Positions 5,183 to 60,288 of a stretch of DNA of 64,000 nucleotides are shown in pieces; position 1 is the first letter of the stretch; the number at the start of each line of letters is the position of its first letter. The stretch covers positions 14,562-78,561 of the forward strand of contig JBDRBF010000002.1 in the NCBI GenBank assembly GCA_043822925.1, written 5' to 3'. Source of the stretch: a bacterium. Lineage in GTDB: Bacteria; Babelota; Babeliae; Babelales; RVW-14. Both the position numbers and the translations under genes were made by a program. The notes beneath the pieces were generated by a model. It was not told the DNA's origin and searched no databases. It saw only the letters and a program-made list of their open reading frames with translations.

Positions 5183-6883
5183 TTAATCAGTCTGTTCTAA
5201 ACGTGCTATTTGCTTCTTATCAATTTTTCCGGTTGCACTCATGGGCAGATCTGTTAAGCAAATAAATTTACGCGGGATTTTGTAGGGGGCCAGGTTGTTG
5301 TTGCACAGTTTTTTAAGACTGTGTTCCAGGCTTGTTTTTTGTTCTTCTGTAAAATCTTTTACGGCAACATAGGCAATAGGAACTTGTCCCGTCCCATCTT
5401 CTAGTTTTCCGACAACAGCAGCTTTAAAAACAGCTGGGTGAGACATAAGTATATTTTCTATTTCTTGGGGATAAATATTAAAGCCCTTATGAATAATAAG
5501 ATCTTTGCTTCTTCCGGTAATATCCAGGAGCCCATTTGTGTTTATACGGGCCAAGTCTCCGGTGTTTAACCATTTGTCTTGCAGTACTTGAGCTGTTGCT
5601 TCAGGTGTTTTATAGTAACCAAGCATAATATTATCACCGCGAAGCCATAATGTGCCAATAGTGCCAACATCAACTTTTTGTCCGTTATTATCGCGAATTT
5701 CACAATCGATATGTGCAAGTGGGCAACCAACAACGGTTGTATCTTTTTCGTTATTATAAATATTAACTGCAACGACTGGAGATGCTTCGGTCAGCCCATA
5801 TCCAGCGCAAATTTTTCTGCCATAAATCATGGCGAAACCTAAACGAATTTTATCTGGAAGCATATCTGCACCAGAAATAAAAAATTTAACATTTTCAAGT
5901 GGTGCTGTTTTCATTAAACACAATAAACCATAAAGGGCTGGAAATCCCAAAAATAATGTTGGTTTATTGGTAAGTCCCTCGAGTATCAGTCGTCGGTCTA
6001 TTTTTCCGACAATTATAACAGAGCCGCCAGCTAAAATTGGGAGCCAAATACAGGTGTTTTGTGCAAATACATGAAAAAGTGGCAATACGCAAAAAAAACG
6101 TTCATCGCTGCGCAGGCCAAGTTTTATAAAGCGGGCCATACACTGCATCGCATTTGTTATAATATTGCGAGAAGAAAGCATGACGCCTTTTGGTTTGCCG
6201 GTTGTTCCTGACGTATAAAGTAATAAACATAATTCGTCATATGCTAAGCGCGCTTGTGAGTTAGTTTCGAGTTGCGTTATATATTCGTTAATCGTCTGTT
6301 TGGTTATAGGTGTTTGCCAGTCGACATCTTGTTGTGTGAAAATATGTGTGTTCTCAAGTTTGTAATCTTGAGCTGAGTTTTCCCTGGTTTGCCAGCCCTT
6401 CGAAGCCACGTAGGGCGTAGTAGGGTCTAAGTTTTTTTTAAGTTCTTGAGATGCGAATATTATTTTTGGTTGCGCATCTTGTATGATAAACGCAAGCTCT
6501 TTGGCATGTAAATATATATTTAATGGGACAACAACGCTTCCAAGCATCCAGGCTGCATAATATGCAACGTAAAATTCTAACGAATTCTCAACATACAATA
6601 ATACATGGTCTCGTGCGGTGACGCCTTGCTCTGTGTATTTTTTGCTTAATAAAATCGCGCGAAATAACAATTCTGTGTAGGTTACTTTTTTGTCTTGATA
6701 TATAAGCGCTGTTTTATCTGGATAATGTTTGTATGCATAGGCAAGAAGATCGCCAACAAAAAAATCTTCACGTGATTCCATGAGCGTCGATTTAATGAGT
6801 TCGTAAAGATAGATTTCGTCATAGGTATTAGTGCTTGTAGTAAGAATTTTATTAAGTTGATCGATCATTTTTAGCTTTGTCAT
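5183..6883 (-). CDS. AMP-dependent acyl-CoA ligase (long-chain fatty acid-CoA ligase-like)
   Basis: YTSGTTGKPKGV AMP-binding motif, GYGLTE, TGDLAR, C-terminal GKIDKK. Confidence 0.8.
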   Translation of the reverse strand: MTKLKMIDQLNKILTTSTNTYDEIYLYELIKSTLMESREDFFVGDLLAYAYKHYPDKTALIYQDKKVTYTELLFRAILLSKKYTEQGVTARDHVLLYVENSLEFYVAYYAAWMLGSVVVPLNIYLHAKELAFIIQDAQPKIIFASQELKKNLDPTTPYVASKGWQTRENSAQDYKLENTHIFTQQDVDWQTPITKQTINEYITQLETNSQARLAYDELCLLLYTSGTTGKPKGVMLSSRNIITNAMQCMARFIKLGLRSDERFFCVLPLFHVFAQNTCIWLPILAGGSVIIVGKIDRRLILEGLTNKPTLFLGFPALYGLLCLMKTAPLENVKFFISGADMLPDKIRLGFAMIYGRKICAGYGLTEASPVVAVNIYNNEKDTTVVGCPLAHIDCEIRDNNGQKVDVGTIGTLWLRGDNIMLGYYKTPEATAQVLQDKWLNTGDLARINTNGLLDITGRSKDLIIHKGFNIYPQEIENILMSHPAVFKAAVVGKLEDGTGQVPIAYVAVKDFTEEQKTSLEHSLKKLCNNNLAPYKIPRKFICLTDLPMSATGKIDKKQIARLEQTD

Positions 6884-6930
6884 CCTGGATTTTGAGCCTT
6901 ATCTCCCCCCCCCGACTTTATCTGGGGTAG
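6879..6930 (+). repeat. Possible degenerate palindromic element copy carrying a C9 tract
   Basis: GTCATCCTGGA...ATCTGGGGTAGG. The GGATGAC terminus on the minus strand contains the ATG of the acyl-CoA ligase gene. Confidence 0.35.
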
Positions 6931-6934
6931 GTTT

Positions 6935-7171
6935 TTATCCTACTTTTTTAATTTCTTCTTCTTGATCAATAAATTCGATTTCGATTGCACTGACAGGGCA
7001 CATGAGCGCCGCTTCGATTATCTTATCTTCGTTTTGTGCTATCGGTGCATTCTTTTTTACCTGAGCAACTTGTTTTATTTCAAAAATGTCAGGAGCGATC
7101 ATGTGGCAAGAGCCACATGATACGCAACCTGGAACTATTTTGACATTTTTGATGGTTGGTTTAGCAGCCAT
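6935..7171 (-). CDS. Small single-cluster ferredoxin
   Basis: CVSCGSC...CP cysteine pattern; 78 aa. Confidence 0.75.
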   Translation of the reverse strand: MAAKPTIKNVKIVPGCVSCGSCHMIAPDIFEIKQVAQVKKNAPIAQNEDKIIEAALMCPVSAIEIEFIDQEEEIKKVG

Positions 7172-7182
7172 TATTTTTTTTT

Positions 7183-7214
7183 GTCATCCTACGAAGCTTT
7201 ATGCAAAGTAGGAT
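7183..7214 (+). repeat. Short palindromic element (ATCCTAC variant)
   Basis: GTCATCCTACGAAGCTTTATGCAAAGTAGGAT. Close relative at 60256-60288. Confidence 0.6.
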
Positions 7215-7222
7215 ACAAATCC

Positions 7223-58138: not shown

Positions 58139-58190
58139 TTTGACAAAAGAATAAACTTACGCGATGCTAGTCAGCATGTTTTAGGAGAAA

Positions 58191-58218
58191 AAGCGTGTGT
58201 GAAACACACGCTTTTTTT
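58191..58218 (+). terminator. Rho-independent terminator after murC
   Basis: AAGCGTGTGT-GAA-ACACACGCTT followed by a T7 run. Confidence 0.7.
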
Positions 58219-58258
58219 AATCAATGAAATGTTTTTATTTTACGAAAGGGACTCTTCT

Positions 58259-60244
58259 ATGTCTAATTGTTCAGTCAAAAAAATCTATCTTACTGCTCTT
58301 GTTCTGGCAATGAGCACCAGTGCTTTTGGGACAGAAAAATCAGATATACTTATAAAAAAAGTAGAAGGCAAACAGCCGATTAAAATTCAACGAGGCGATT
58401 CAGCTTTTACGGTCGGTGGTACTATTAAAGGTGAGCATTTCTTTAAAAAAAATAATCAGATGCTTAATTCTAAGCTGCCTGATGAACTTGAATTTTTTAA
58501 GAATGTTTTTGATTTTACTTTTGATTTTGCCTATGGCGAAAAAAAGTTTGAACACAAAGCTGTTGAAGCTTTTGTTGATTTAAGGCACAAGGGTTATTGG
58601 GGGCTTGGCTCTGAATATGCAAGTTCAGAAGCAACAAGTCCTGGTAACGTAAGAATTAGTGATTCTTTATTGGGGAATCACGCGCATAAAAATAATAAGC
58701 CACTTATTTGGATTAAAGAAGGCTGGTTGCAAGTTAGTGCAAGCGCTGTTGCGGGAGTTCATGCACGCAACGAACTGCATTTTCTTAAATTGGGCTGGTT
58801 CCCGTTTGAAATGGGGCGCGGTATTGCCTTGGGTTCTTTTTATGGTATGGCACGCGAATTAATTGGTACGTATAATTGGGATGAAGATAAAGCTGCTCCA
58901 GGAATATTGTTAACCGGTGAAATTACTAAAGATAAGCTTGCATATGATGTTTATTATTCAAAGTTTGAAGAACGTAATAAAAGTTTGAGCTATACGCTTA
59001 ATACTCTTAAAGAGCAACTTATTGGCCGCAAAACAACGCCATCGCGCGGTGTTGCCAAAGATAATGATTTGTTTGCCACGCGTCTTAAATGGACAGCTCT
59101 CAATACTGACCAATATGGAAAATTGAATCTTGAACCATATGTATTTTATAACGAAGCATCAGATCAAAGAATTGAGATTTTGGCTGATTCAAAAACAGAG
59201 CTAGGTAGTGTTGGTCTTTCTGCTGAGCATAAGTACAAAAATTTTGAAATAGGCGGTGATATTGCTGCAAACTTTGGTGATCAATATATTCATGGTATTG
59301 ATCGTAATGTTATTAAAGTTGAACGCGATAAAGATGGTTATTTAGCTGAGTTTTTCTCTCATATTTATGCACGAAGCGATGCGGCAAAAAGTTCCGTTTT
59401 GGTAACAGATGATAGTAAGAAAGTCGCTAAAAAACAAGCGACAGAAGGTCAAACTCTGGTAGCAGGAACTTCGTTTAGAGGCACAGATCCATTAGCAACA
59501 GATGCTGTTTTTGCAAGCAAAATTGATAGATTTAAGAATTCGTATAAAAACAAGCTTCGTGGTTGGATGGGCGTTATAGATACAGCATACACGTTTGAAG
59601 ATTGGGGTTTAACATTGGCGCTTACTTATGGATATGCATCTGGTGATAAGAACCCGTATGTAACAGCTGAAAATAAGACCTATAAAGGCTTTATTGGTGT
59701 TAACGAATCATACTCTGGCAAACGCGTAAAAAGTATTTTTTATGATGACCGTATTATGCAAGTGCCATCAGCACTTGAAGTTAATGATCGTAAAGCAGTT
59801 CAAGAAATGGCTTTCACAAACTTACATCTTACTGGTTTAGGTGCAACATGGAAGCCTGCGTTTGCTAAAGCTAAGAAATTAAGCATCAATCCAAATATGT
59901 TGCTCTATTGGAAAGATTATGCATCAAAGAAATTTGCTTATGAATTAGATAATCCAAGAAAAGGTAAAGTTCTTGATGAAAACGCAAGCAAGTTTATTGG
60001 CACAGAATTGAACTTAATGGTCAAATCTGAATTGCTTCAAGACTTAAATGCGTATGGTAATTTTGGCGCATTTATTCCAGGGGCATTTTATAAAGATATC
60101 AAGGGTGTTCCTACAGATACGAGAGATTTCTTTGTAACCGTTATTGAGCAAGGGGCTGAAACTGATGGAGAGAAGCCTGAAGATTACAGACTTGGCAACG
60201 ATGTTGCATATTTTGTTAACGTAGGCCTTTCTTATTCGTTTTAA
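58259..60244 (+). CDS. Putative outer-membrane beta-barrel protein
   Basis: From ATG 58259 the signal peptide is MSNCSVKKIYLTALVLAMSTSAFG. Ends ...VGLSYSF. The track start at 58199 lies inside the murC terminator. Confidence 0.6.
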   Translation: MSNCSVKKIYLTALVLAMSTSAFGTEKSDILIKKVEGKQPIKIQRGDSAFTVGGTIKGEHFFKKNNQMLNSKLPDELEFFKNVFDFTFDFAYGEKKFEHKAVEAFVDLRHKGYWGLGSEYASSEATSPGNVRISDSLLGNHAHKNNKPLIWIKEGWLQVSASAVAGVHARNELHFLKLGWFPFEMGRGIALGSFYGMARELIGTYNWDEDKAAPGILLTGEITKDKLAYDVYYSKFEERNKSLSYTLNTLKEQLIGRKTTPSRGVAKDNDLFATRLKWTALNTDQYGKLNLEPYVFYNEASDQRIEILADSKTELGSVGLSAEHKYKNFEIGGDIAANFGDQYIHGIDRNVIKVERDKDGYLAEFFSHIYARSDAAKSSVLVTDDSKKVAKKQATEGQTLVAGTSFRGTDPLATDAVFASKIDRFKNSYKNKLRGWMGVIDTAYTFEDWGLTLALTYGYASGDKNPYVTAENKTYKGFIGVNESYSGKRVKSIFYDDRIMQVPSALEVNDRKAVQEMAFTNLHLTGLGATWKPAFAKAKKLSINPNMLLYWKDYASKKFAYELDNPRKGKVLDENASKFIGTELNLMVKSELLQDLNAYGNFGAFIPGAFYKDIKGVPTDTRDFFVTVIEQGAETDGEKPEDYRLGNDVAYFVNVGLSYSF

Positions 60245-60255
60245 TTACGCGTCTT

Positions 60256-60288
60256 GTTATCCTACGAAGCTTTAGCGTGGTAGGATCC
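60256..60288 (+). repeat. Short palindromic element (ATCCTAC variant) just after a stop codon
   Basis: GTTATCCTACGAAGCTTTAGCGTGGTAGGATCC. Confidence 0.6.

Follow-up and report, generated by a model that had tools for sequence, protein, structure and literature searches.

What are the short GC-rich palindromes scattered over an otherwise AT-rich bacterial locus, and what spreads them? The locus is a 64-kb stretch (hereafter the window, to which positions and counts of copies refer) from a bacterium of the lineage Babelota (GenBank assembly GCA_043822925.1, contig JBDRBF010000002.1, positions 14,562 to 78,561). The elements are very probably Ssn-related motifs (SRMs), otherwise known as CGTC-tagged REPs, which have spread as short non-autonomous DNA in this Dependentiae-like (TM6) genome together with a matching nuclease gene, ssnA. 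SRMs and CGTC-tagged REPs are the same superfamily, which also holds dRS3/NTS of Neisseria and RPE-4 and RPE-6 of Rickettsia. The repeat family and the nuclease have already been published (2013 and 2025, respectively); the host lineage and a variant of the stem are new. These data extend the SRM/SsnA system to a Dependentiae-like genome, whose stem variant escapes the published search string.

CGTC-tagged REPs were defined by Di Nocera, De Gregorio & Rocco (2013, BMC Genomics 14:522; PMC3733652) as hairpins headed by CGTC, TGTC, or CCTC whose stem of 8-9 bp opens with AT (A-T and T-A are the first two pairs), with a loop of 4-5 nt and an unpaired 3-nt tail, mostly CCA. According to these authors, who count dRS3, RPE-4, and RPE-6 among them, the repeats lie within 20 bp of the 3' ends of open reading frames (ORFs), have intragenic copies notably in replication and repair genes, occur mostly as head-to-head dimers, and form a family that "lacks a dedicated transposase". 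Chenal et al. (2025, Nat Commun 16:2388; PMC11893778) described SsnA, a single-domain GIY-YIG protein of 94 aa, which binds the Neisseria NTS CGTCATTCCCGCGMAVGCGGGAATCYRG as single-stranded DNA (ssDNA) only, on one strand only, and cuts a few nucleotides upstream. The C tail was most important for binding in the Neisseria work, SsnA was inactive on RNA, and mutation of Y6, Y17, and E64 of Nm SsnA abolished activity. Homologs number in the thousands, 71% with SRMs nearby and 42% with SRMs on both sides. Neither paper settles on a mobilising enzyme, and Chenal et al. only raise an analogy with insertion sequences (IS).

The ssnA gene and its cassette

Three features form the cassette:

20693..20733, + strand: minimal SRM upstream of ssnA, TATTCTGTCGTC-ATCCCAGA-CTTGA-TCTGGGAT-CCAAGTCC; covariance model 44.7 bits, E=1e-10; DNA fold -7.2 kcal/mol, z=-2.7
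20764..21069, + strand: ssnA homolog encoding a 101-aa single-domain GIY-YIG nuclease; Pfam PF01541 (E=7e-14) is the sole Pfam match
21107..21137, - strand: minimal SRM downstream of ssnA, inverted; detected by covariance model and ssDNA folding

The upstream SRM thus lies 30 nt from the gene on the same strand, and the inverted one 37 nt beyond it. A tblastn search of plasmid records with the window nuclease yielded two 2.17-Mb Neisseria gonorrhoeae records filed as plasmids (E=6e-22; the published criterion for homologs of Neisseria SsnA is tblastn E<1e-10, PMC11893778). In pairwise alignment, the window protein and the gonococcal GIY-YIG protein shared 50% identity over 90 aa without gaps (E=8e-32). 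The gonococcal locus has the canonical NTS CGTCATTCCCGC..GCGGGAATC on both sides, and it was taken as ssnA from these flanks and its size, not from a locus tag. Residues Y7, Y18, and E65 of the window protein align ungapped with Y6, Y17, and E64 of Nm SsnA. Searches of NCBIfam and PDB sequences with the window nuclease gave nothing specific.

The closest homologs of the window nuclease (70-71% identity) belong to TM6/Dependentiae, and the arrangement SRM(+)-ssnA-SRM(-) recurs in two Dependentiae relatives, L121 and L122, in other gene neighbourhoods. An SRM lay within 82 nt of the ssnA homolog in 4 of the 5 loci that held one and within 44 nt in 9 of 11; SRM-flanked ssnA homologs were found in the window, Neisseria, sphingomonads, Patescibacteria, and Dependentiae relatives.

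The gene directly downstream of the cassette (21230-22057) has a weak match to ComEC 'Competence' that stays below the Pfam cut-off (E=1.6e-4). Although transformation is modulated by SsnA in Neisseria, the adjacency is probably coincidental, because the same gene follows holB in a relative without the cassette (see below). One of the N. gonorrhoeae records (NZ_CP119142.1, 2.17 Mb, filed as a plasmid) is evidently a chromosome, and its ssnA frame is apparently broken near the 5' end (MHGLYFSKPT-stop, then the remainder in another frame).

Structure, covariation, and distribution of the unit

The unit is an oriented hairpin in which an 8-bp stem, with AT as its first bases, encloses the loop CTTGA and is framed by an unpaired head, YGTC, and the tail CCA. 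Heads in the window were CGTC at 20701, 21107 (-), 26756 (-), and 20596, TGTC at 7182, 9560, 19812, 28996, 37909, and 6878, and TGTT at 60255. The tail was CCA at 19812, 20701, 21107 (-), 28996, and 60255 and CTA at 9560; it was missing at 7182 (ACA) and 37909 (TTA). Three minimal copies had the loop CTTGA or CTTGT, and in the other copies the loop measured 14-41 nt or about 100 nt and carried extra modules. Besides the 8-bp stems ATCCCAGA, ATCCTGGA, and ATCCTGAA, a 7-bp stem, ATCCTAC, was present. Changes in the stem were compensated between copies (ATCCCAGA/TCTGGGAT, ATCCTGAA/TTCAGGAT, ATCCTAC/GTAGGAT; ATCCTGGA/TCCGGGAT with one G-T wobble), and the window stem carries a compensated A:T pair (CCCAGA/TCTGGG).

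Among 279 hairpins in matched loci, the head was CGTC in 184 and TGTC in 87, and the tail was CCA in 222. Covariation was assessed on 48 distinct variants, picked by head, loop, and tail only, with pairing not required. All 8 stem pairs showed double-sided changes, and 91.9% of cells were paired compared to 72.7% in shuffles; none of 500 shuffles matched the observed value, and slid controls gave 14-50%.

When one representative genome per species was scanned, the two-ended pattern was found in at least 119 genome stretches of many phyla, nearly all with the same 26-mer, GTCATCCCGGACTTGATCCGGGATCC. The exact 26-nt core GTCATCCCRGACTTGATCYGGGATCC is carried by at least 119 genome stretches from across many phyla, and by at least 120 metagenome contigs. 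Hosts among the matches listed were sphingomonads, Burkholderiales, Patescibacteria, Omnitrophota, Nitrospira, Zixibacteria, and others. The A:T stem variant of the window was recovered from at least 120 metagenome contigs, whose median GC was 0.41.

The published SRM string, HGTCWYN(0-2)YYVSBRHN(0-5)WNVSBRGN(0-2)RNCYNB, was derived from only 29 genomes (PMC11893778). The CCCGGA (G:C) form of the stem from other genomes matches this string. The A:T variant is missed by it, and therefore string-based surveys undercount AT-rich hosts. A fuzzy version of the string (1-2 substitutions) performed no better than on shuffles and was replaced by a structural scan and a covariance model.

Near the match in eight loci (L033, L045, L066, L068, L076, L085, L099, L120), and also in L121 (9750-9862), a complete SRM is directly preceded on its 5' side by 2-5 left halves in tandem, each consisting of a head, a left arm, and some 10 variable nt. 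These arrays lie on the side where SsnA reportedly cuts and might be footprints of repeated cleavage and repair. The cited parts of Di Nocera et al. and Chenal et al. do not mention such arrays.

Copies in the window

The left motif GTCATCCYRGA (up to 1 mismatch) matched 11 times against 1.4 expected, and 0 of 100 shuffles reached 11. The right motif TCYGGGATCC matched 8 times (2.05 expected) and the two-ended pattern 4 times (0.00 expected). The structural scan, which required the head GT[CT]AT, a stem of 7 or more, and a C tail, gave 10 matches vs 2.5 in shuffles; six were true copies, and four were long-loop matches by chance. ssDNA folding recovered the outer hairpin in eight copies (7182, 9560, 19812, 20701, 21107 (-), 28996, 37909, and 60255), while the hairpin expected at 6879 and 19604 was not formed. 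The covariance model, built from the 48 variants, found the copies at 20701, 21107 (-), and 37909 with E<=2e-4, gave marginal hits for the long-loop copies, and found no further minimal copy in the 64 kb. An Rfam scan in gathering and E-value modes returned two tRNAs and no match for the elements.

The copies outside the cassette are as follows:

6878..6934, + strand: degenerate weak copy; head and left arm intact, wobble-rich right arm, C9 run in the loop
7182..7217, + strand: SRM variant with stem ATCCTAC/GTAGGAT and 15-nt loop, without C tail; fold z=-4.6
9560..9622, + strand: composite SRM whose loop holds module 'b'; 63-nt insertion that separates the porin stop codon from the terminator of this gene
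19603..19648, + strand: fragment with head and left arm, then another module; right arm missing
19804..19880, + strand: composite SRM in frame in holB (delta'); 36-nt loop module; codes for YSVVIPDLPVRHSSTGATAGIWDPS
20588..20661, + strand: degenerate composite SRM; left arm decayed, module 'a' in the loop, right arm and tail intact
26630..26760, - strand: long composite in frame in gpsA, made up of an SRM head, modules 'c', 'b', 'a', and 'b', and a right arm that has decayed
28996..29057, + strand: composite SRM, stem ATCCTGGA/TCCGGGAT with one G-T wobble, 38-nt loop; 9 nt past the stop codon of a HAD hydrolase gene and upstream of a terminator (29089-29105)
37909..37936, + strand: minimal SRM variant in a divergent intergenic region, ATCCTGAA/TTCAGGAT, tail TTA; covariance model 23.6 bits, E=2e-4; fold z=-3.75
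53578..53682, + strand: possible long composite variant, uncertain, beginning within the CCA end of tRNA-Ala; wobble in the stem ATCCTAC/GTAGGGT
60255..60289, + strand: SRM variant with head TGTT, stem ATCCTAC/GTAGGAT, 14-nt loop, and CCA tail; 11 nt past the stop codon of an outer membrane protein (OMP) gene

The stem type at 37909 also flanks ssnA in the Dependentiae relative L122. Both degenerate composites (20588 and 26630-26760) have one decayed arm and modules common to other copies.

Of the 13 copies listed in the preliminary description, about 10 are sound; those at 6879, 19604, and 53578 are weak or fragmentary. Its minimal form at 20693-20733, an 8-bp stem with a 5-nt loop, was correct, and the mosaic build was borne out by modules that recur in differing combinations. 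Two module-only copies, 29159-29183 and 47151-47175 (-), were missing from the list, and the GIY-YIG gene ssnA bracketed by two copies and the in-frame insertions in holB and gpsA had been overlooked. The statement that most copies begin close to a stop codon applies to about 7 of the 13 (9561, 19604, 28997, 60256, 7183, 6879, and 21071); the copies at 19804 and 26635 are intragenic, and that at 37910 lies in a divergent promoter region.

That a short GC-rich motif matched by chance within an AT-rich genome, or that the copies are an artefact of assembly, has next to no probability. Three of the 13 listed copies are weak, and some long-loop hairpins of the structural scan arose by chance, but no shuffle reached the observed counts, identical 31-nt copies exist among the window elements, and the unit is conserved across phyla with covariation. 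For the core set, chance is refuted by the shuffle and covariation tests.

Eleven copies are on the + strand, which is the G-rich strand, and two on the - strand. This tally suggested a bias to the lagging-strand template as in IS200/IS605; the idea was dropped, since among 88 singleton SRMs elsewhere orientation had no relation to local GC skew (45 of 88), and the bias was thus not reproduced.

Some copies contribute to annotated genes. The annotated ATG of an AMP-ligase ORF (minus strand) comes from the GTCAT of the 6878 copy (6881-6883), and the last six codons and stop codon of tmk come from the 19603 fragment (19603-19623). The run of nine C at 6905-6913 in the degenerate copy, between the ferredoxin stop and the AMP-ligase start, is a possible slippage-prone tract.

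Insertion and mobility

Several natural before/after comparisons (an empty site, a syntenic relative without the cassette, and a loop indel between strains) bear on the mobility of SRMs and ssnA. An IS200-like unit is flanked by two copies of the porin 3' end with its terminator, of which the left one lacks the element:

8582..8669, no strand: paralogous empty site with flanks as in 9514-9664, without the element

In the right copy (9514-9664), a discrete insertion of 63 nt begins at the head, its boundary being ambiguous by no more than 2 nt (TT). This left boundary, at the head or within 2 nt of it, is an indirect hint of the predicted cleavage by SsnA upstream of the head.

In the zinc module of HolB (delta'), the first Cys is separated from the CxCxxC by an insert of 25-30 residues, YSVVIPDLPVRHSSTGATAGIWDPS. 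The insert is missing in all 9 nearest homologs. The holB homologs come from Babeliales, which, together with the homologs of the nuclease, makes Dependentiae the probable affiliation of the host. GpsA is about 41-42 aa longer than in solved PDB structures and in a syntenic relative (L245/L246). This relative shares the order DegT, tmk, holB, comEC-like ... gpsA, uppS. Its holB overlaps the comEC-like gene and the ssnA cassette is absent; its gpsA, 41 aa shorter, and its holB are uninterrupted, and no SRM was found across its 8.75 kb. As in Rickettsia RPE, the elements in holB and gpsA lie inside ORFs, in frame, and are absent from the orthologs. Insertions are thus tolerated in the zinc module of the clamp-loader subunit delta' and in GpsA, which parallels Rickettsia RPE in another intracellular lineage.

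Two short metagenome contigs (L001 and L164), whose assemblies (ERZ27247128 and Ga0180007) may stem from one sample, are 99.4% identical to the window, with 8 substitutions and a single indel. At window position 21118, within the SRM downstream of ssnA, the contigs carry an additional 36-nt loop module, identical to the module of the holB copy 1.3 kb away but inverted. Insertion and gene conversion between the two copies are equally likely origins of this difference.

Mosaic modules

Composite copies retain the SRM arms, and other palindromes sit in the loops; the mosaic appearance arises because other small palindromes are nested in or beside SRM loops. Three modules stand outside SRMs:

21071..21101, - strand: module 'a' palindrome GCCCGGCGTAGCCTTG-GCGAAGCCTGGGTC, 97% identical to 20610-20641, with its own hairpin; abuts the downstream SRM and the ssnA stop codon
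29159..29183, + strand: solo module 'b' hairpin CGCTCACCC-TGAGCTTGTCGAA-GGG, 100% identical to 9577-9601
47151..47175, - strand: module 'b' copy inside a PD40/TolB-like ORF, coding for ..CFDKLSTS..

Module 'b', a widespread small hairpin whose loop TGAGCYTGTCGAA is conserved, lies at 9577-9601, 29159-29183, 26650-26664, 26706-26730, and 47151-47175. It was also found alone or within SRM loops of sphingomonad and other contigs of several phyla (L015, L035, L073, L074, L102, L134). In an ORF it codes for ..FDKL.. or ..LSLSKG.., and it is in frame in the PD40/TolB-like gene of the window. Its sequence was in no paper found by literature search and in no Rfam family.

Module 'a' (GCCCGGCGTAGCCTTGTGCGAAGCCTGGGTC) is located at 20610-20641, 21071-21101, and 26664-26696. 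Its local alignment with the terminal inverted repeat (TIR) of the IS200-like unit (8673-8735) scored 31 against a maximum of 27 in 200 shuffles, a borderline value; module 'a' may thus be a miniature derivative of that Y1 transposase element and not of the SRM. In one metagenome copy (L188), a second SRM is nested in the loop of the first. The metagenome search pattern demanded both arms intact, so a constant insertion point of modules is not inferable from those copies.

Comparison with known systems

The window elements resemble the SRM/SsnA system (Chenal et al., 2025) in several respects: the hairpin is oriented, its head being CGTCAT and its tail ATCC; a gene for a single-domain GIY-YIG protein of about 100 aa is present, with 50% identity to the Neisseria gene; the layout is SRM-ssnA-SRM; and the elements are enriched in a symbiont-type genome. 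They differ in having A:T where the published stem has G:C, the loop CTTGA instead of GMAV, and large nested modules in many copies. Two window copies are in frame in essential genes, whereas NTS are seldom intragenic, and the host is Dependentiae-like. The role shown in Neisseria concerns natural transformation.

With the CGTC-tagged REP family of 8-bp stem and 5-nt loop (Di Nocera et al., 2013), the elements have in common the head CGTC or TGTC, the 8-bp stem starting with AT, in the three minimal copies the 5-nt loop, the CCA tail, the location within 20 bp of ORF 3' ends, and intragenic copies, including one in a replication gene. In contrast to that family, the window has no head-to-head dimers, and half of its copies are composite; the 2013 paper associated no enzyme with the repeats. 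Like Rickettsia RPE, the elements are GC-rich palindromes in frame in housekeeping genes of an intracellular AT-rich bacterium, adding a peptide without destroying the protein; this likeness is by description, and RPE-1 is longer and unrelated.

The comparison with E. coli BIMEs made in the preliminary description applies insofar as these too are short oriented REP-type hairpins, form mosaics, and lie near 3' ends of genes. In E. coli the ssDNA is recognised by a dedicated nuclease, RAYT, whose gene is flanked by REPs, and the same is predicted for the window by homology. The elements are not members of the BIME/GTAG-REP group: the head is YGTC and not GTAG, the enzyme has a GIY-YIG fold and not HUH Y1, and the stem and loop follow other rules.

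SsnA, transcription, or a Y1 transposase

The most likely reading of the hairpin structure and its covariation, the nuclease homology, the cassette architecture, and the presence or absence of copies between paralogous sites, strains, and relatives, all observed here, is that the elements are SsnA recognition hairpins spread as short mobile DNA. Judging from the homologous enzymes characterised in Neisseria and Wolbachia, the SsnA of the window would bind the top strand of the hairpin as ssDNA and cut a few nucleotides 5' of the head, with no action on double-stranded DNA or RNA. The copies, which have probably spread as short non-autonomous DNA, sit just past stop codons, upstream of real terminators, and in frame in holB and gpsA. 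We infer both this binding and cleavage and that SsnA, or ssDNA repair at its cuts, spreads the copies.

Several points weigh against this reading. The published SRM string has no strict match in the window, where copies differ from it at the compensated stem pair and the last tail base. The canonical 4-5-nt loop is present in three copies only, and several copies (7182, 37909) lack the C tail. Head-to-head dimers, common in high-GC loci, are absent from the window, where the sole inverted pair brackets ssnA. The role of SsnA shown in Neisseria is restriction of incoming ssDNA during transformation, not transposition (PMC11893778). Finally, the window also contains a gene for a Y1 (IS200-like) transposase.

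A role chiefly in the transcript, whether as intrinsic terminators or as stabilisers in the 3' untranslated region of the upstream gene, is highly unlikely for the hairpins. In its favour, some 7 copies are no more than 15 nt from a stop codon, the stem at 28996 has a G-T wobble on the sense strand, and Di Nocera et al. argue that many REPs are transcribed (PMC3733652). However, a T-tract follows no copy; hairpins resembling terminators with T-runs are separate and downstream, at 19650-19666 and 29089-29105, and the outer SRM stem is followed by CCAAGT, CCATCC, or similar. Terminator calls included no full element hairpin, those at 20636-20656 and 29048-29061 being short internal stems, and none of the elements matched Rfam. 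Relative to the neighbouring transcript, about half of the copies (7182, 9560, 6878, and 37909 among them) are antisense; two are inside ORFs. Head and tail, both conserved and unpaired, make the hairpin directional, which is relevant to SsnA acting on ssDNA; the enzyme does not act on RNA (PMC11893778). The terminator role proposed in the preliminary description thus finds no support; preferential insertion, its alternative, fits the comparison of filled and empty sites and the relatives without the insertions. REP-RAYT pairs are the established model for hairpin repeats, and the elements could be of REP/BIME type, moved by a Y1 (HUH) transposase of the RAYT/IS200 type, with SsnA as a bystander. 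The candidate is located 234 nt from the 9560 copy:

8895-9326: IS200-like Y1 transposase ORF (PF01797, E=1.3e-27) with nearly identical TIRs at 8673-8735 and 9397-9466

The weak resemblance of module 'a' to the TIR of this unit also speaks for such a mover, to which we nevertheless give very little chance. The TIRs of the Y1 gene are its own, about 60 nt long and unrelated to SRMs; the SRM head is YGTC and not the GTAG cleaved by RAYTs. It is the ssnA homologs that are SRM-flanked, from the window to Neisseria, and Di Nocera et al. report no Y1 gene flanked by CGTC units in any species (PMC3733652).

A stronger version of the preferred explanation, in which SsnA recognises and spreads the hairpins, can be put forward tentatively, although we consider it rather unlikely. 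SRM-ssnA-SRM might be an autonomous ssDNA transposon of a new class, driven by GIY-YIG and not by HUH or DDE enzymes, with solo SRMs as its miniature derivatives and SRM loops as preferred landing sites for palindromic modules, including SRMs themselves. If so, the window would be a record of a recent invasion of a Dependentiae genome: the cassette is absent in the syntenic relative, a filled and an empty site differ by 63 nt, strains differ by 36 nt, and holB and gpsA carry insertions.

Other duplications in the window

The Y1 unit resembles the 'TIRYT/TIRtron' units of Di Nocera et al. (PMC3733652). It lies (8545-9664) within a direct duplication of about 125 nt that holds the porin 3' end and terminator, a length unusual for this transposase family. 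Two tandem paralogous genes, 54357-55520 and 55541-56698 (region 54356-56701), share 72-75% DNA identity; their duplication is unrelated to the repeats.

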